From assembly GCA_964016885.1 (NCBI GenBank), contig OZ024740.1:397358001-397422000 (forward strand): a DNA stretch of 64,000 nt, read 5' to 3'. Shown here piece after piece: positions 12,771 to 57,749 of this stretch. The notes under the pieces are model-generated. The model made no database searches and was not told where the DNA came from. It worked only from the letters and a program-made list of their open reading frames with translations. The position numbers and the translations under genes are program-made. Numbering within the stretch: position 1 is the first letter of the stretch; every line of letters begins with the position of its first letter. This stretch comes from Eledone cirrhosa (taxonomy: Eukaryota).

Positions 12771-12946
12771 TAATAAATTGTTTCGATGCATCACTGATTC
12801 TTTGTTTTCCATATTATTATACTCTGCTCCGAAAGAGCATAAAGTGCTCAACCGGCATACCACCTAGGGAAGCATCTAAGCAACCTTACCACAAATATAT
12901 ATATACATGAATGTGAGTATACATATATATATATATATATATATAT

Positions 12947-13975
12947 ATTGAAACAAAATGAAAACGAAATTTCATTTCTCACTCTTAGTATGGCACTTAC
13001 TTAAATGTAAGTATGCATGTATACGTACATACATATATGTATACAGACGTACAGTAGCATGCACATATATATATATATATACATATATATATACATATGC
13101 ATACAGGTACACATACATATATGCACGTATCAGTTTAGCGGCGCTAACGTCGCTTTGTTCGTTTGTAAACAAACTGAACAGCCTGAATTTATGCCATACG
13201 GTGTTAAGGCAACCACGTCACCTTTTTGTTCAACACTGATAGCTAACAAGCTTGAAACTAGTACATCGTTCCTGTGTCAGTGTTGAACAAAAAGGTGACG
13301 TGGTTGCCTTAACACCGTATGGCATAAATTCAGGCTGTTCAGTTTGTTTACAAACGAACAAAGCGACGTTAGCGCCGCTAAACTGATACGTGCATATATG
13401 TATGTGTACCTGTATGCATATGTATATATATATGTATATATATATATATATGTGCATGCTACTGTACGTCTGTATACATATATGTATGTACGTATACATG
13501 CATACTTACATTTAAGTAAGTGCCATACTAAGAGTGAGAAATGAAATTTCGTTTTCATTTTGTTTCAATTTATCGTTTTCGGTATGCCTGACCGATTTAA
13601 CTCACTCAATATGCAAATTAGGCTGCTCAGCCGTTAATTTTCATAAGGAAAGTATATACTTTCGAACATTCAACTATCTGGCAGATGGGTAAACGGTGCT
13701 GATGATAGCTAACAAGCTTGAAACTAGTACATCGTTCCTGTGTCAGTGTTGAACAAAAAGGTGACGTGGTTGCCTTAACACCGTATGGCATAAATTCAGG
13801 CTGTTCAGTTTGTTTACAAACGAACAAAGCGACGTTAGCGCCGCTAAACTGATACGTGCATATATGTATGTGTACCTGTATGCATATGTATATATATATG
13901 TATATATATATATATATGTGCATGCTACTGTACGTCTGTATACATATATGTATGTACGTATACATGCATACTTAT
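12947..13975 (+). mobile_element. Family B HHR mini-element: 293-bp inverted repeat plus 466-bp head-to-tail repeat, inside (TA)n
   Basis: Arms 12947-13239 and 13277-13569 (mirror ORFs in the track are identical), with a 37-nt spacer. 13240-13506 repeats at offset 466. Confidence 0.9.
13692..13736 (+). ncRNA. Type-I hammerhead ribozyme, family B
   Basis: AACGGTG-CTGATGA-TAGCTAACAAGCTT-GAAA-CTAG-TA-CATCGTT. 7-bp stem I, palindromic ACTAGT, GUA site after 13729. Confidence 0.85.
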
Positions 13976-14439
13976 ATATATATATATATATATATACATA
14001 CTCACACACAGAGAAAGAGGGAGAGAAAGAGAGAAAGCAAGAGATTGATGCATAGATATTGGTAAAGATGTAAATATTTATTATACTGACTATGGTATTA
14101 TTTAAGTACAATTGTTTCATGAGGCATCTCTTTCAGATTTTCACTGATACAAACTCCATTCAACCCTTCAGACTATATTGATGCAATTTTGTAATGGTTC
14201 TGTTCTTTTGCTTCAAATGTGAAAGAATTCCAAAAGAAAAGTGTTTTAGATATAGTGAGTGTTAAAAGAAAAGCAATAGAGGCAATTTTGTAGTTGATAA
14301 GACAGATAGATGAAGATACTCTACAAAAATTAAAAAGAGCTAACTTTTGGAAGATCCATGTATAGGGTAAAAGAATAAAAAAAAATTGTAATTCTAGAGT
14401 GTCCATGTGAAAGTTGTTAGATATCAGTTGACTTAAAAA

Positions 14440-14850
14440 ATTACAACACCAACCTCACTAATGTTCATTTCCTAGATATCACATTCAACTTAAATTCACT
14501 TACTCATAAGCCTTACCACAAACCTAATGAGCAGCTTATATAAACCAACAGAAACTCATGTTATCCACCCACAGTCTTCAGGAATCTAATAGCCAAAATA
14601 TGAAAGAGAATTTCTCTTCAAATAAGGATATATTTGACAGAGTAACCTTCTACTGCAATAATGCCCTAGTCAACACCCTAGTAATAAAAATAATGGAAAT
14701 AGAGACACGCCCTCTAAACCAATGATGTGTCTTAAAAATTGCTTCCTAAACCACAAGATAACCTTCAGATATCTAGACAAAAGATCCAACACTAACCTCA
14801 CAAGTTATGTTTGGAATCTTAAAGACAGAAGTACAAAACACTAAGGCTGA
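14440..14850 (+). mobile_element. Old Penelope-like element fragment (RT thumb / GIY-YIG)
   Basis: 'FLDITFNLNSLTHKPYHKPNEQL...SCYPP' aligns by eye with 'FLDINLDLLTASFKPYHKPNENL...SCHPP' of the 26-kb PLE. 'LTSYVWNLKD' follows. Confidence 0.7.
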
Positions 14851-18930: not shown

Positions 18931-19480
18931 ATATTGTTATGCTTTGGGAGGGTCATGTTGCCAATAAGAAACACACGCACCAGTTCCTTTCACTCCAATT
19001 TATTATAAGTTAAATTTATAAATTTCCGGTTGATTGGTTGGTTCCACAACCGGACGGTTGTTCATATATTGTCAAAGTTCTTTCGTCACACATTCTGTGA
19101 CCTCTTCAGTGACTGGGGATTTTTTTCTTTTCACCCGGATGTAACACATGCGCAAACTAAGCACACAACACACACAAAAAAAATAAGATGGCGTAGGACA
19201 GAACAAAGGAGAGGCACAAAAACAAAGAAAAGAATCCCCAGTCACTGAAGAGGTCACAGAATGTGTGACGAAAGAACTTTGACAATATATGAACAACCGT
19301 CCGGTTGTGGAACCAACCAACCAACCGGAAATTTATAAATTTAACTTATAATAAATTGGACTGAAGGCAACTGGTGCATGTGTTTCTTATTGGCAACATG
19401 ACCCTCCTAAAGCATAACAATATCGGTTTCAACACACGTTTTCAGATAAAGAATCTTGCTAAACAAATTCAGAAACGAAA
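18931..19480 (+). mobile_element. Family A fold-back element with an HHR on each strand
   Basis: About 200-bp arms 18931-19130 / 19224-19423, 57-nt tail 19424-19480, (TA)n flanks. HHRs at 19071-19113 (-) and 19241-19283 (+). Confidence 0.9.
19241..19283 (+). ncRNA. Minimal type-I hammerhead, family A
   Basis: GTCA-CTGAAGA-GGTCACAGAATGTGTGAC-GAAA-GAAC-TT-TGAC. Other copies at 19071-19113 (-), 19701-19743 (-), 32136-32178 (+) and 37882-37924 (+). Confidence 0.7.
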
Positions 19481-19488
19481 TATATATA

Positions 19489-19548
<60 letters not shown>

Positions 19549-19554
<6 letters not shown>

Positions 19555-19897
19555 ACGCTTTGGGAGGGTCATGTTGCCAATAAGAAACACACGCACCAGT
19601 TGCTTTCACTTCAATTTATTATAATAAATTTATAAATTTAAGAATTTATAAATTTCCGGTTGGTTGGTTGGTTCCACAACCAGATGGTTGTTTATATATT
19701 GTCAAATTTCTTTCGTCACACATTCTGTGACCTCTTCAGTGACTGGGGATTCTTTTCTTTGTTTTTGTGCCTCTCCTTTGTTCTGTCCTACGCCATTCTG
19801 TCCTACGCCATTTTGTTTCTGTGTGTCACACAGAAACAAAATGGCGTAGGACAGAACAAAGGTGCGTGTGTTTCTTATTGGCAACATGACCCTCCCA
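19549..19897. mobile_element. Rearranged family A copy
   Basis: The inverted arm starts at the same fixed site. Internal hairpin and duplication at 19778-19860; joined directly to a family B copy. Confidence 0.8.
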
Positions 19898-20373
19898 TAC
19901 TACTGTACGTCTGTATGCATATATGTATGTACGTATACATACTTATATTTAACTAACAGCTGAACTAAGAGTGAGAAATGAAATTTCGTTTCATTTTTTT
20001 TTGTTTATCGTTTTCGGTGCGCCCGGCCGATTAACTCACTCGATATCAAATTAGGCTGCTCAGCTGTTAATATGCATAAGGAAAGTATATACTTTCAGAC
20101 GTTCAATCATCTGGCAGGAAGGTATACGGTGCTGACGATAGCTAATAAGCTTGAAACTAGTACATCGTTCCTTTGTCAGTGTTGAATAAAAGGGCAACGA
20201 TGGTTGGTAAATACTCTACGGCTTAATTCGGGATGTTTGTTTACAAACACCCCGAGCATTATAATAAATGTTCGGTGAATCCATATGTACATATATATAT
20301 ATATGTGTGCATGTATGTATATATATACATACTACTGTACGTCTGTATACATATATGTATGTACGTATACATA

Positions 20374-20380
<7 letters not shown>
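19898..20380 (+). mobile_element. Diverged family B copy (about 1.1 units) with HHR at 20126-20168
   Basis: ACGGTG-CTGACGA-TAGCTAATAAGCTT-GAAA-CTAG-TA-CATCGT. The terminal segment CATACTACTGTACGTCTGTAT occurs at both ends. Confidence 0.8.
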
Positions 20381-25048: not shown

Positions 25049-25107
25049 TTTCATTCTGATGATTGAAAGCAAATTTTTTGCTTTTAAGAAACCACTGGTA
25101 AATGGAA
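25049..25107 (+). ncRNA. Type-I hammerhead ribozyme in the PLE 5' pLTR, family E
   Basis: TTTCATT-CTGATGA-TTGAAAGCAAATTTTTTGCTTTTAA-GAAA-CCACTGG-TA-AATGGAA. 7-bp stem I, 11-bp stem II, GUA site about 220 nt upstream of the ORF ATG. Confidence 0.85.
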
Positions 25108-25320: not shown

Positions 25321-27412
25321 ATGGACCTTTATGAATTGGATTATTCAATCAAAAATATACCTACTCCTTCCAACACAACTTATACCAAAATGCTTATAGA
25401 TAAAATCGAACAAGTCGTTAAAAGAATGAGATGAAGGCAATGGTTTACGATGGACTATTCAGTGCTGATACTAATGATTGTTTTGACATAAAATCCCGTA
25501 AATATCCACCTATAATTAAAGACATGGCCAACTTCGAATTAGACTTTGTTAATTTAATTAGTGATATCAAATTTCGTAAGTACAATAATAACTTTCAAAC
25601 TAAACTGTCTAACGATATTTCTAATTTTAGAAATTCTACAAACACCTTTGTTCTTTCTGATAAAACTAAAAATCTCTTTGAAGTTAATAGTACTTTGTAT
25701 AACCAACTTTTAACTAATAGTATCACCAACAAATATCAATTAACTAATAATAATACAATACTATTAATAAAGAAGCTAAAGAACTAGCTAGTTCTTTAAA
25801 AATAGACAACCGGATTGAAAGCCTAGCTAAGCGTAAAGCATATATTACCCTTAAAGACCATAAATTAGACTTTACTAATCGACCTAGTTGTAGACTGATT
25901 AACCCGGCTAAATCCTAAGTTGGCCTTGCAAGTAAAAAAATCTTAAGAAAAATAATTCCCCAAATTAGAACTAACACTGACCTATCACAGTGGCTAAATA
26001 CTTCCTCTGTTATTTCTTGGTTTAATAATATACAAGGTAAAAATAAGTGTAGATTTGCCCAATTTGATATTGTTGATTTTTACCCCTCTATTATTGTTTC
26101 CTTATTAACTAATGCCTTAGATTTTGCAAGACCCTTCATTAATATTTCTAAATTAGAAGAAGACATTATCTTTCATGTTAGAAAAACTTTACTCTTTACT
26201 AATGAAAATATTTGGGTTAAAAAGTCAAACCCTGAAAACTCTTTTGATGTTGCAATGGGTTCATATGACAGTGCGGATGTGTGTGACTTAGTAGGATTAT
26301 TCCTTCTCCACACCCTCAAAGAGAAGTTTCCTTCCCATAATATCGGTTTATACCGTGATGACGGATTGGCAGTTTCTCATACCACCAACGGCCTTGATAA
26401 ATTCCGTAAAGATTTAATCAATACTTTTGCTAATCTTAACCTTAAAATCACTATAGATACGAACCTTACCAATGCTAACTTTCTTGATATTAATCTTGAT
26501 CTACTTACCGCCTCTTTTAAACCTTATCATAAACCTAATGAAAATCTTAGGTATATACACAAAGAGTCTTGCCATCCTCCTATATTTTTTAATAATCTTA
26601 TTCCCAACATTAGCCGTAGGATTTTTACCTTATCTTCGTCTATAGACATTTTTAATAAAGCCGCCCCTTATTATAATAAAGCCCTTAAGAATTTACAGAA
26701 AAAACTCCCCCCCCCCCCCAAAAAAAAACTAACCACAATAACAGGAAAAGGAATATTATTTGGTTCACACACCCCTTCTCTCTAACTGTCAAAACTAATG
26801 TAGGAAGGAAATTCCTTGAACTCTTAGATAAACATTTTCCTCCTAATCATAGATATTATAAGATATTTAATAGGAACATAGTTAAGATCAGTTACTCTTG
26901 TTGCCCATCTATGAAGTCCACGATCACTAATTCAAATCATACGAGAACAAATCCAGGATGCAGTTGCAGGAAGCCGGATGAATGCCCATTGCAGGGCAAA
27001 TGTAACACCAAATCTGTTGTTTATGAGGCTAAAATAACACCTTTAATCAACAACCAGCCAGCCAGGAGTGAGCGATATGTCGGCATGACCCAGGACAGGT
27101 TTAAAACCAGGTTTTATCACATGTCGCTTCTTTTAAGCCCTCCGATAAACGAACAACAACGGCCCTCGCAAGTAAGGTGTAGGAATTCAAGGATAATAAC
27201 ATACCGTACTCTATCTATTGGTCTATTTTAGACCATTCGAGGGAGTACCAAAGGGGCACAAAGAATTGTTCTTTGTGTACCACAGAAAAATATAGGATTT
27301 TGCTAAACTTGAAAGCCACTTCTGCTTGCCTGAACTCAAAGACCGAGATCTTCAGATATTGTCCTCATCTGAAATCTCATCTGATCTGTAACTGGATTGA
27401 CATTCCTATGAT
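25321..27412 (+). pseudogene. PLE polyprotein (RT + Cys linker + GIY-YIG), frameshifted
   Basis: MDLYELDYSIKNIP...KRMR, LKDHK, FDIVDFYPSI, MGSYDSADVCDLVG, GLYRDDGL, CSCRKPDECPLQGKC, VVYEAKI...YVGMT, CSLCTTEK. Several stops and frameshifts. Confidence 0.9.
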
Positions 27413-51927: not shown

Positions 51928-51956
<29 letters not shown>

Positions 51957-51959
<3 letters not shown>

Positions 51960-53100
51960 AGAGACGTAAGATAAGAAAATTATAAAATTAACTTACTTAC
52001 TAAAATATCACTTCCAACTAATTAGTTTCTGGAATGGAGTAGATACATCTTCCGAAGAAGGTGTTGAGAAACATCCCGTCATCAGGAAAGTCAATTCTCA
52101 TATAAGTTCCAGGCAAAGCGAGGACACTGGAAGCTTATTAAAAATAAATCAGTGAATAGGAAATAGCAAAGCGTGGACTTACTTCCTAGCCATTGAGAAA
52201 ATCACTGCCTCTGTGTCTGTGGCAAATTCAAAAAGAATCGAACACATGACAATGAGGTCAATCGGTGGAAAGTGGGTTGTTAATAAGACAGCGGCTAGCC
52301 TGCTACCGTAGCAGCAGTCATGGCCAGTATTGCTCAACAAATATTTTGGAGATAATAATAAAGAATTTATATCTAGTAACATATATATATACATACAAAT
52401 GCATATCGATACTAGCAAATATATAGGTTTTGTCTTAGTAACATTGTGGTTCAATGCATGGGGTTGCAGAACAATAATATAAGAGACGTAAGATAAGAAA
52501 ATTATAAAATTAACTTACTTACTAAAATATCACTTCCAACTAATTAGTTTCTGGAATGGAGTAGATACATCTTCCGAAGAAGGTGTAGAGAAACATCCCG
52601 TCATCAGGAAAGTCAATTCTCATATAAGTTCCAGGCAAAGCCGCTGTCTTATTAACAACCCACTTTCCACCGATTGACCTCGTTGTCACGTGTTCGATTC
52701 TTTTTGAATTTGCCACAGACACAGAGGCAGTGATTTTCTCAATGGCTAGGAAGTAAGTCCACGCTTTGCTATTTCCTATTCACTGATTTATTTTTAATAA
52801 GCTTCCAGTGTCCTCGCTTTGCCTGGAACTTATATGAGAATTGACTTTCCTGATGATGGGATGTTTCTCAACACCTTCTTCGGAAGATGTATCTACTCCA
52901 TTCCAGAAACTAATTAGTTGGAAGTGATATTTTAGTAAGTAAGTTAATTTTATAATTTTCTTATCTTACGTCTCTTATATTATTGTTCTGCAATCCCATG
53001 CATTGAACCACAATGTTATTAAGACAAAACCTATATATTTGCTAGCATCGATATGCATTTGTATGTATATATATGTTACTAGATATAAATTCTTTATTAT
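51957..53100 (-). mobile_element. Family H mini-element: 522-bp tandem unit plus inverted arm, three HHRs
   Basis: 51957-52119 repeats at offset 522. 52640-53100 is inverted. HHRs at 52010-52091 (-), 52532-52613 (-) and 52844-52925 (+). Confidence 0.9.
52844..52925 (+). ncRNA. Type-I hammerhead ribozyme, family H, extended stem II capped by a cUUCGg loop
   Basis: ACTTTC-CTGATGA-TGGGATG...CTTC(TTCG)GAAG...CATTCCA-GAAA-CTAATTAG-TT-GGAAGT. Confidence 0.85.
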
Positions 53101-53246: not shown

Positions 53247-54029
53247 AAATAAAGGATTATGAGTTCATACAATTGACTTATGTTTCGTCACTATATATAT
53301 ATATATATATATAGTTATACTTGGGGAGGGTCATATTTGTGTAATATTGCCAGAATTAATAACAGAACACACTCACTGTTTGGTTGGTTTTCGCTTTTCG
53401 CTTTTCGCTTCTGTGTCTTTTATATCGGTAATCTAATTTATTCGGTCCTCAATGTTGCCATTGACTGACCAACGGTCAAAAATAATACAGATATAATATA
53501 GACACAAACACATATATATAGTTTATCAAAGTTCTTTCGTTGCACATCTGCAACATCGTCAGTGGTGCTATTGTTTCCTCCCGTTACATTGTATGTCTAC
53601 GCCATCTTTATTTAGTCTGTTTATATATTCTTTGTGCATGCGTTTGCGTGTGTGTATAGTGTTTTGTTTGATGTGTGTTCGTGATTGGGTGACTGTGTAT
53701 TGGTTAATGTATTCTATCTTTACTAGTGTGTGTTTATATGTGTTTGTTGTTATTGTGCTTGTGTATGTATTTATTTATTTATTTATCTATTTATTTATTT
53801 ATTTATATTTCTCTTAGGTCAGTGTTGTTTGTTTGGGTGTTGTTGTTATTCCATTCATTCTTTCTGTTTAGTCTTGGCCTTCTAAGTTCTATTTCACTGG
53901 CCTCTCTGATTTGCCTATCTGCTGGGTCATTTCTATGTTTAGATATTATTCTAATTTCTATGTTGTCTATGTTACCATCGTGTTGTTGTCTGGCATGTTC
54001 GTATAGTACTGACCCATTTTTTCGTCCTT

Positions 54030-55550
54030 TTAGTTCCCCCAGTGTTGGTCTATCCTTTCACCTATGCTACAAGCTGTCTCGCCTATGTATGTTGTTGTCA
54101 TGTTTCTGCAAGTACCCTCTGTACATCTTATGCTATAGACTACGTTTCTAGTTTTACAGTTTATCCGGGGGTTTACCTTACATATGATACATTTCCTATT
54201 AGTACAGTGGGTTTTCTTAAAAGGGTAGGTTTTGCTGATCAGGGATTTTATGGTGGTTCCTGGCTTTTCTACCACCTTAATCTTTAAATGGGTCTTTCTC
54301 AGGGCCTTTCTACACTGGTTAGCTAATTTCCCTCCAGGGGTAGCGTCCACAAACATGACACTCTGGTATCTCTGATTGTCGTACCATGAGGTGGCTTTCC
54401 CTATCTTATGTCTAGCCCTATCTAAGCTATTCCATGATTTGCTCCTGTATAATGGGCAAATTCCTTTCATGTCCAGTTCTATGAGGGTCTTATACTTCTC
54501 CATGGCTCCTTCGTATACTCTGACTCTGTCTCTTTGGTTGTAGCCAGAGAACTGCATGCGGTTGATGAAGTGTTGGATGTGTCTTTCCATTTCTGTTGGG
54601 TCGTACATGCAGGACACATTCTTCATCACTCGTACCAAATCTGCGATCAGAATATTAAACTTAGCACTACTGGACATTGCTGAGTTTTTGAGTATCAGGT
54701 ATTTGGAGGCCATGGGTTTAGCATAGTGTGAGTGGAGAATTTGGGCTCTCTCGTCTATAGTGTTAATCCAGAGTTCCGTGTCTAATACAGGTAGTCTATT
54801 GTTAGGGTGTTTGGAAGGGTAGTCGATAGTTACAGTTATACTCTGGTGTATGGAATTAGCTATCTGCTGGATGCTTTCCATTGTGCTATGTTCTAAATAA
54901 AACTTGTTAGTGCTCTCTAGTGGGGATGTTCTTATAACTATATTGATATCGTCTACATAACGAGAGTACATGATGAGGTCTATGGAGCTCTCATTAAGGA
55001 GATCTTTAAATCTCCTTTCCCACCATACCATAAAAAGGTTGGCAACATCACCAGCTATGCTGACGCCAATGGCTGCTCCCTCATTTTGGGTGTAGGTCTT
55101 CTCGTTGAACTTGAATATGTGGCTCTTTAGGGTAGTTTTGATACTAGCCCCTATTGCATGTGCGACCATTTTTCTTACCTGATCATTGTTTTGGGGGGTC
55201 CGTATAGCTTTCGTCCACCCAATCCACCTTCCCATGGGAGTCTTTTTTGCCATTGAGGTTATGGTGGGGGGTCTACCTGTTATGGGTCTACTAGGGCAGA
55301 AACGTCTAAGGTCATGGCTGTCTAGGTAGTTAGTGTCGTAGGTAAGTCTAAGTAGGAGGCCCAGTTCATCTGTGTCGACGTCGCAGAACTCCACCTCACT
55401 CTCAATGATCATCTCCACACATTTTTCCACAGCAAAATCAATGTTAATGGATGGGTACAGTGATACCACATCCATGCTGCCTATTATGCAGTTGGATAGG
55501 TTCCTGTTTTTGTTGCACTCACTGATTCTGCTGAGGAGGTCCTCTGTACT
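54030..55550 (-). pseudogene. 5'-truncated PLE RT + GIY-YIG endonuclease
   Basis: STEDLL...SMDVVSLYPSI, GAAIG..IAGDVANLFM, YSRYVDD, LPVLD, Cys linker, NVVYSIRC...YIGET. A 1-bp G-run deletion near 54035 truncates it; the intact C-terminus is seen at 55778-56077. Confidence 0.9.
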
Positions 55551-56314
55551 GTGTAGAAAACCAGTGTAGAAAGGCCCTGAGAAAGACCCACTTAAAGATT
55601 AAGGTGGTAGAAAAGCCAGGAACCACCATAAAATCCCTGATCAGCAAAACCTACCCTTTTAAGAAAACCCACTGTACTAATAGGAAATGTATCATATGTA
55701 AGGTAAACCCCCGGATAAACTGAAAAACTAGAAACGTAGTCTATAGCATAAGATGTACAGAGGGTACTTGCAGAAACATGACAACAACATACATAGGCGA
55801 GACAGCTCGTAGCATAGGTGAAAGGATAGACCAACACTGGGGGGAGCTAAAAGGACGAAAAAACGGGTCAGTACTATACGAACATGCCAGACAACAACAC
55901 GACGGTAACATAGACAACATAGAAATTAGAATAATATCTAAACATAGAAATGACCCAGCAGATAAGCAAATCAGAGAGGCCAGTGAAATAGAACTTAGAA
56001 GGCCAAGACTAAACAGAAAGAATGAATGGAATAACAACAACACCCAAACAAATAACACTGACCTAAGAGAAGTATAAATAAATAAATAAATAGATAAATA
56101 AATAAATAAATACATACACAAGCACAATAACAACAAACACATATAAACACACACTAGTAAAGATAGAATACATTAACCAATACACAGTCACCCAATCACG
56201 AACACACACGCAAACGCATGCGCAAAGAAGACAAAATAAAATAAATAAATAAATATATAAACAGACTAAATAAAGATGGCGTAGACATACAATATAACAG
56301 GAGGAAACAATAGC

Positions 56315-56356
56315 ACCACTGACGATGTTGCAGATGTGCAACGAAAGAACTTTGAT
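56315..56356 (+). ncRNA. Minimal hammerhead, family A-related subfamily
   Basis: ACCA-CTGACGA-TGTTGCAGATGTGCAAC-GAAA-GAAC-TT-TGAT. Weak stem I; stem II covaries with family A. Confidence 0.65.
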
Positions 56357-57749
56357 AAACTATATATATGTGTTTGTGTCTATATTGTATCTGTATTATT
56401 TTTGACCATTGGTCAGTCAATGGCAACATTGAGGACCGAATAAATTAGATTACCGATATAAAAGACACAGAAGCGAAAAGCGAAAAGCGAAAACCAACCA
56501 AACAGTGAGTGTGTTCTGTTATTAATTCTGGCAATATTACACAAATATGACCCTCCCCAAGTATAACAATATTTGTTTCGACACACAATTTCATATAAAA
56601 AACCTTGCAAAACTATATATATATATATATATATATATACAGATAGATATAGATATAGAAATATGTACCTTAGTAGCTGGAAAAGTGGATGTTAAAATGT
56701 TAATGATGACAATGATGATGATGTATATATATATAGAAACGTATTGTATAGAATGGTGAACTCAAAACAAAAACAGAATGTCTTGAACATAACACAAGAA
56801 AAATACTGAATCCATATGAGCATGATGTGGTCTCCACACCTGACTTGTCACATAATGTGACAACTCATATGACCCATGCAAGCATGGAAAAATAAGCATT
56901 ACATGATGATGATGATGATGATGATACATATAAATATATATACTTACATATATGTTTATTGCATATAAACATATAGTACATGCTTTCATATACACCCCTA
57001 ATATCATCATCATCATTATCACTGTTTTACGTCAATGTCTCCACGCTAGCATGGGTTAGATTGGTTGTCCTGTTGTGGGCAATGCCAGGTCAGGTGACCA
57101 TGTCTTGCTCATACAGGAACTGATTTGGGCTTGATTTCTACAGCTGGATGCCCTTCCTAACACCATCCTCATTTACAGTGAGTACTGGGTGCTTTTTTGT
57201 TGCGAGACCTCCACGACCTCTTTGTACTGGGAGCATATTGTCTATATGCTTCAGCTTCGGCTTGTACCCATGGGGGGGGGGGTCTTCTGTATTACTGCAT
57301 GACATGTATGGAAATCGACTAGAGTCTATGTAGATGAGGAAGGAACGTAGTGAGTGAAGAGAAGCTGTGCTGAGAAGAACCCATCCACTCATGGAAGTTG
57401 AAGTATAATTTATAATTTTAAAACTGATGATAGGAAACAAAATATATATTCATATTTTTGTGTTTCTTTATGCCTTTTATTAAAATGACGTTTTACTGAA
57501 TGACATGTCATTCATTACTTTTAAAAACAAATAAGAAATAAACATCTATTAAGAACATTTGTTAAATGATGTTTTCACAGAAATAATAATCATAGACTCT
57601 TTTGATGAATATGATGGTGTATTTGCTTTTTAATTAACAAAGATAGAATATCATATCATGGAATTGAGATATAATAGAAATGGCATTTAATCAATACCGC
57701 AAAAATGGAGAAGAGTTCAACAAGCCTGAGACATTATGTTGCTATGAGT

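Follow-up and report, generated by a model that had tools for sequence, protein, structure and literature searches.

A non-coding hammerhead repeat of Eledone cirrhosa with PLE-type insertion anatomy and two fixed 3' ends, one per arm

An ORF-less circular monomer as the mobile unit, here a predicted one of 466 nt, is the published retrozyme model (PMC7229834), and circular templates have been proposed for PLEs as well as for retrozymes (PMC4209133, PMC7229834). That PLEs mobilise retrozymes has so far rested on co-occurrence and phylogeny (10.64898/2026.07.22.740005). Among PLEs themselves, a tail at one end of inverted copies is known qualitatively (PMC8557442, PMC3846280), and the origin of tandem and inverted copies with such a one-sided tail has been named an open problem (PMC8557442). 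Work in vitro with a PLE protein, predicted to form a dimer, showed cutting and extension of both strands, with synthesis beginning at two internal sites that bound the tail (PMC11167929); insertion by this element, PAc, does not need ribozyme cleavage, and uncut RNA is its main substrate (PMC11167929). What we say of these papers refers to the parts of their text that were searched. The young, short and abundant family described here turns both questions into counts: the start site of each arm, independent arm lengths and one haplotype per insertion.

Layout of the focal element and its predicted ribozyme

The window, that is, the whole 64,000-nt stretch of DNA that was analysed, lies in a region of 33% GC within an AT-rich, 3.0-Gb host genome. 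The focal element (12947-13974) and its relative in the window are laid out as follows, with the basis of each assignment in brackets.

12923-12946, no strand: left (TA)n target tract, target duplication unreadable (sequence)
12947-13239, minus: inverted arm, 293 nt; its 3' end, 12947, is start site S2; contains the 61-nt tail, 12947-13007 (self-comparison and end classes)
13237-13239, no strand: arm junction, 3-nt microhomology, TGA (self-comparison)
13237-13974, plus: forward arm, 738 nt or 1.58 units; its 3' end, 13974, is start site S1 (self-comparison)
13237-13270, plus: 5'-truncated hammerhead with stem II, GAAA, CUAG palindrome, GUA and the 3' strand of stem I; predicted cut after 13263 (sequence, fold)
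13264-13729, plus: 466-nt cut-to-cut monomer, the predicted RNA unit (sequence; arrays of 466-nt units elsewhere)
13386-13460, plus: internal TA/TG microsatellite block, the haplotype marker (haplotype counts)
13509-13569, plus: 61-nt tail, bounded by an internal S1 copy (13508) and an S2 copy (13569) (end calling)
13692-13736, plus: complete type I hammerhead with palindromic CUAG and GUA; predicted cut after 13729 (sequence, fold, covariation)
Parts of the complete hammerhead, plus: stem I 13692-13698/13730-13736, CUGAUGA 13699-13705, stem II 13706-13719, GAAA 13720-13723 (sequence)
13975-13996, no strand: right (TA)n target tract (sequence)
19896-20377, plus: single-armed relative of an older 432-nt subfamily; ribozyme core at 20132; S1 3' end as in the focal element (sequence)

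Self-comparison of the sequence bore out the identical palindrome arms reported in an earlier note on this DNA: two inverted copies of 293 nt each (12947-13239 and 13277-13569) match exactly across a 37-nt spacer. The GUA triplets end at 13263 and 13729, as the earlier note had also said, and the direct-repeat offset is exactly 466; what it had called a 466-nt head-to-tail repeat, however, consists of 272 nt doubled exactly (13237-13508 = 13703-13974), the forward arm holding 1.58 units rather than two. Similarly, the spacer had been described as the hammerhead minus its 5' stem. The 5' strand of stem I is indeed missing, but the CUGAUGA core has gone as well, leaving a TGA that is common to the inverted arm. 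We agree that there is no meaningful ORF: the single stop-to-stop frame of at least 120 aa over the element is microsatellite-derived and lies on the minus strand (13743-14132). (TA)n tracts adjoin the element at both ends, and the flanks (12912-12945 and 13973-14006) form a 34-nt inverted match (94%), the target TA tract having sat within a small palindrome. About 470 nt beyond the right TA tract lies a degraded PLE reverse transcriptase fragment (14445-14612, plus strand; 54% identity to a family with 714-aa frames).

The relative at 19896-20377 has a period of 432. It has kept its ribozyme, with changes at N7 and in loop II as had been claimed, but they are not confined to those places, one outer base of stem I being changed too. 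The claim that it is redundant in a different register did not hold: its 3' end is the focal 3' site (CATACTTA followed by TA repeat), and the 5' truncation point alone differs.

The complete ribozyme combines the CUGANGA, GAAA and UH core of a type I hammerhead with stems I and II. Among seven aligned variants from the focal family and a homologous sister family, the core is invariant save for N7 and H17. Stems I and II covary, with 93.1% of cells paired against 39-49% in slid controls and with double changes in 6 of 15 pairs; these seven rows were chosen and fall into essentially two clades, so the count rests on few events. The pair closing stem II (G10.1-C11.1) is G-C in the sister family and U-U in the focal one, which departs from the consensus at this point, and stem III has 2 bp and sits on the palindromic CUAG. 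A 2-bp stem III on a palindromic loop is a design that needs a dimer (PMC4209133). This closure and this stem III may make for weak cleavage; of nine Xenopus retrozymes, eight showed none in vitro (10.64898/2026.07.22.740005). No Rfam family matched the window at its gathering score, and the weak match to Hammerhead_HH9 at 13685-13747 (18.5 bits, E 0.057) stays below the cut-off of 52. Free folding of the ribozyme alone gave a z of -1.55, which is not significant, and did not return the catalytic fold; a two-strand cofold did not contain the double hammerhead. Because only the second ribozyme of the focal copy has the catalytic half, arrays of at least two whole units would be likelier sources of RNA. 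In the family, 279 of 285 predicted cut sites, located by exact flanks, are unscarred.

The family and its relatives

A 31-place ribozyme pattern matched 24,749 times genome-wide and the reversed control pattern 0 times, an abundance far beyond chance. A pattern for related ribozymes gave 10,938 matches (control 0), and ribozyme repeats of the focal lineage total about 35,000 in the genome. The copies are dispersed and take the form of monomers, partial tandems or arrays with units of 420-570 nt; they are non-coding, and their target tracts are (TA)n. One insertion, into another repeat (L080), has a 6-9 bp target duplication. The homologous sister family (L190:5500-7500; L306-L320) has units of 466-470 nt, fully compensated stems I and II, a GUU or GUC triplet, a longer tail of about 70 nt and arrays of at least 30 units. 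Its unit gave no match in a DNA search of a kind that passes over very common words.

Short tandem units that each carry a type I hammerhead, dispersed high copy number and low GC are the marks of a retrozyme. At the level of ORFs and terminal redundancy, neither coding capacity nor an LTR/PBS/PPT design is seen: there is no ORF, and the redundancy varies with 5' truncation. The copies also show the anatomy of PLE insertions: partial tandems, an inverted 5' copy, a tail at one end, 5' truncation and a microsatellite target. Judged by its sequence, the element belongs among the non-LTR retrozymes, a known kind, and has the insertion anatomy of a PLE. Solitary ribozyme variants with 'CAGCT' were considered as autonomous parents and discarded, 5 of 5 being ordinary family copies.

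Several neighbouring repeats were seen along the way. Arrays of more than 35 kb (L179, L068-L071, C4:305.62-305.66 Mb) and more than 7 kb (L186) vary in unit length and look like satellite expansion, and in the young array L263 the unit lengths cycle through 458, 466 and 466, a higher-order repeat. A second, unrelated non-coding family (L074:6303-8500; L053, L171, L243) forms near-identical arrays of a 310-nt unit; its hammerhead has a U-U closure of stem II and a palindromic CGCG loop, and its two 3' ends lie ~35 nt apart. A further short repeat with a CTGATGA-GAAA motif (L157, L099, L178, L203, L249) forms palindromes ending in TA tracts. Within the window, inverted repeats are nested at 51955-53074; they contain CTGATGA motifs (52085, 52607 and 52850) and probably belong to another PLE-type family.

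3' ends, junctions and haplotypes of the arms

Family copies end in 3' at S1 (unit positions 272-278; 13508 and 13974 in the window) or at S2 (unit 333-337; 13569 in the window), about 61 nt apart. We called 188 ends in the fetched loci; 120 of them form 60 back-to-back pairs, a count that takes in two local duplicates and three doubtful calls, and 59 of the 60 pairs join one S1 to one S2. In the sole other pair (L135), an arm is cut past S1 by other sequence. Genome-wide, the exact end patterns of the young subfamily matched 869 ends at S2 and 919 at S1. Among the matches listed, 196 ends fell in the range common to both patterns and yielded 59 neighbour pairs within 10 kb, all 59 of them back-to-back S1+S2; one of these is also among the 60 pairs from fetched loci. 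We read 22 unpaired ends by eye (20 of 78, plus 2) and found eight S1+S2 pairs that had been overlooked since the exact end pattern missed them, eight single-armed copies and six ambiguous cases. In the sister family, all 10 callable two-armed insertions were S1+S2, and an eleventh extended beyond the sequence fetched. The one two-armed case seen in the 310-nt family (L074) had S1+S2-like pairing.

The 5' ends of the arms follow no such rule. Junctions were mapped in 51 pairs, left from the 60 after doubtful, same-site, over-long and duplicate cases had been dropped, and in 54 young pairs (4 of 58 were skipped as too long). None of the 210 arm 5' ends lies within 2 nt of the predicted cut and four lie within 5 nt, where 5.0 are expected. 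Since 5' ends do not pile up at the cut, the ribozyme in the focal spacer is there by chance, and linear cut monomers are unlikely as templates. The meaning that the earlier note had seen in a ribozyme used as spacer is thereby lost; the focal spacer is a one-off junction position. Of the young junctions (n=54), 36 have 1-6 nt of microhomology, 2 are blunt and 16 contain inserted bases. The S1 arm is the longer one in 57 of 105 pairs, only 2 of 105 are mirror-symmetric, and the two arm lengths are uncorrelated (rho -0.14, p 0.15); about half of the arms are longer than one unit, and a quarter are longer than two. S2 arms ended at S1 in 12 of 105 pairs versus 4 of 105 (p = 0.066), which is no more than suggestive of stalling by two enzymes that collide on one RNA.

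We next compared the units within and between insertions. In 54 young insertions, 12 variants are fixed in all copies of their insertion, and 7 of these span both arms (up to 9/9 copies); rare substitutions are fixed through both arms in 7 of the 54. Variants present in several but not all copies occur in 2 of 54. Single-copy variants number 183, many of them from a few divergent or chimeric insertions, and a unit of another subfamily lies inside 3 of the 54. The microsatellite haplotype is identical in 663 of 940 pairs of units within insertions and in 230 of 331 cross-arm pairs, against 2460 of 35645 between insertions. Modal haplotypes come in 22 distinct forms in 39 young insertions, and two arrays are wholly uniform (L207, 10/10; L313, 16/16). 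The commonest microsatellite haplotype differs between the arms in 12 of 32 insertions, and variant units are repeated in L263, L248 and the heterogeneous long arrays L314-L316. Among older copies, the arms diverge from each other by 2.9% versus 5.4% from the median locus (p 1.3e-5), and in only 9 of 28 does the similarity between the arms equal that to the nearest other locus. The uniformity within insertions may also stem from gene conversion or from uniform source arrays outside the sample.

Template, enzyme and comparison with known systems

Taken as a whole, the element is almost certainly a non-autonomous element of PLE type, and twin target priming is very likely. We consider it probable, from the genomic sequence, that each insertion was made by a Penelope-type reverse transcriptase/endonuclease acting in trans, which would nick both target strands and prime two cDNAs on one monomeric, probably circular, RNA. 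That the template was a single circular monomer is the reading we are inclined to favour for this step. Tandem transcripts would be cut by the ribozyme, probably as a dimer, and closed into circles by host ligation; one enzyme subunit would start at S1 and the other at S2, and each would copy round the circle independently for a random distance, with a median of about one unit and a range of up to many. Joining of the two cDNA ends by microhomology would leave a back-to-back palindrome in which a single arm has the tail. The fullest form of this account, which could equally prove right or wrong, has one enzyme dimer hold a single RNA circle, produced by the ribozyme, at two fixed sites; the subunits of the dimer would each prime one target strand and roll round the same circle, yielding cDNAs that join head to head. 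If true, such a dimer-on-circle mechanism explains the tandems, inverted copies and one-sided tail of PLEs; the insertions become a genome-scale record of Penelope-type transposition, and animal retrozymes are shown to ride PLE machinery.

Twin priming by a PLE could also have used an uncut linear multimeric transcript, with the arrays lengthened and homogenised at the DNA level and the ribozyme a mere passenger. The lack of an end pile-up at the cut is equally compatible with uncut RNA and with a circle, unprocessed RNA is what PAc uses (PMC11167929), and unequal crossover has been proposed for local amplification (10.64898/2026.07.22.740005). Higher-order repeats and very long arrays exist in the family, and DNA-level expansion does also occur, as the higher-order units of L263, the heterogeneous arrays L314-L316 and an array of more than 35 kb indicate. 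However, 22 modal haplotypes in 39 young insertions, together with private variants fixed in up to 9/9 copies, would on this reading need repeated bottlenecks of one unit followed by re-expansion, and variants in several but not all units are limited to 2 of 54 insertions. A common unit order in L001 and L003, considered as a sign of a multimeric template, was rejected, the variants being recurrent CpG changes. We regard the uncut multimer as rather unlikely.

Alternatively, the palindrome might have arisen when a single cDNA or RNA folded back and primed itself, the ribozyme remnant serving as hairpin loop, a link that the earlier note implied; self-priming has been proposed for PLEs (PMC3846280). 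The focal spacer is a ribozyme remnant, and a few junctions (L007 and L075, for example) are near-symmetric. Yet a fold-back copy cannot outrun its template arm, so most copies contradict this origin, the S1 arm being longer in 57/105 and symmetry limited to 2/105; arm junctions are moreover spread over the whole unit, and we hold fold-back to be very improbable. It is hardly credible that the copies came about by breakage of an autonomous PLE's terminal repeats, or that they reflect misassembly of a satellite. Some copies do have a PLE ORF fragment within 1.5 kb (23 of 199 tblastn rows), and one (L058) directly adjoins a fragment of a PLE reverse transcriptase. But units succeed one another at 420-570 nt with no ORF between them, 9 of 10 PLE-neighbouring cases are separate insertions at base level, and hundreds of dispersed loci with junctions that are all different exclude an artefact.

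As for the enzyme, the genome holds active PLEs, including the family with 714-aa open frames. The PLE ORF at 25422-27231 (plus strand) in the window is frameshifted; it belongs to a very abundant family (41,951 first-look candidates) with intact 714-aa frames elsewhere and has its own hammerheads at 25056 and 31686. It was dismissed as the parent, its ribozyme and tail being unrelated in sequence. Four PLE protein queries (tblastn against 320 loci and the window) gave 199 matches, 23 of which had a family ribozyme on their strand no more than 1.5 kb away, and revealed no ORF-bearing partner linked by terminal-repeat sequence; the arrangement of an autonomous PLE, with a reverse transcriptase plus GIY-YIG ORF between the repeats, is absent. 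Ten cases of a neighbouring PLE ORF were read at base level; in nine, the two are insertions of their own, kept apart by (TA)n or unrelated sequence or marked by a target duplication. In the tenth (L058:936-1926; n=1), the 5' end of an arm is joined directly, inside one TA tract, to 369 nt of reverse transcriptase sequence from the 714-aa family, possibly a template switch pointing to the partner. L080 had been considered a chimera with a PLE ORF, a reading that was rejected because its 6-9 bp duplication marks it as an insertion. Another PLE reverse transcriptase ORF in the window (54030-55598, minus strand; repeats 53309-56572) lies in a large inverted structure, and hammerhead-like motifs at 53562 and 56319 are related to short repeats at 19109-19739, 32140 and 37886.

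The earlier note had proposed that the mobile unit is a 466-nt, ORF-less, possibly circular monomer. This is the published retrozyme model and finds genomic support here, but the evidence then offered does not carry it, because the spacer ribozyme is a one-off, the relative does not differ in register at its 3' end and a PLE inverted 5' copy with its tail accounts for the palindrome. Constant attachment to a PLE ORF, which the earlier note had named as an outcome that would speak against its proposal, is not what the loci inspected show. The back-splice-like reads that it suggested searching for cannot distinguish a ligated circle from a genomic tandem array, the two being identical across the cut. 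What the counts give is a strong, testable mechanistic signal beyond what that first reading saw. For the PLE system already established in vitro, the family offers a substrate of 466 nt together with sharp predictions.

Strict S1+S2 pairing, haplotype evidence from both arms and two-armed retrozymes were not found in the searched text of the PLE and retrozyme literature (PMC11167929 and PMC7761336 included); the rule may already stand elsewhere, for instance in older work on PLE structure. The family agrees with the metazoan non-LTR retrozymes (PMC7229834; 10.64898/2026.07.22.740005) in several respects: the tandem units are non-coding and low in GC, each has a single type I hammerhead, copies number in the thousands and range from monomers to long arrays, the genome also contains PLEs, and rolling-circle reverse transcription is the proposed route. 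Its unit of 466 nt compares with 170-400 nt in the 2020 account (PMC7229834) and 51-972 in that of 2026 (10.64898/2026.07.22.740005). Inverted arms, tail and fixed ends, as seen here, are not described in the text searched of either paper, and circular RNA, which both show for published retrozymes, is predicted here from genomic DNA.

Endonuclease-positive PLEs (PMC8557442, PMC3846280, PMC4209133) resemble the family in 5' truncation, partial tandems, an inverted 5' copy and a tail at one end, as well as in microsatellite targets, microhomology joins, a 6-9 bp target duplication (one readable site here) and a hammerhead with a palindromic loop 3. Their tail is 30-40 nt, whereas the focal family has no ORF and a tail of about 61 nt. 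For the tail at one end, the PLE papers say 'often' or 'optionally' and invoke endonuclease resolution or self-priming; here one site per arm is a counted rule. PAc, a Poseidon element of Anolis (Frangieh et al. 2024, PMC11167929), is like the family in that two internal start sites bound its tail, its target is AT-rich, both strands are cut and extended, a dimer is predicted and no ribozyme cut is seen at the ends. PAc is autonomous and the focal family is not, and the authors of that study favour unprocessed linear RNA. By contrast with PAc, for which the searched text reports no start-site difference between strands and no pairing of sites per event (PMC11167929), the two sites here are paired in each insertion.
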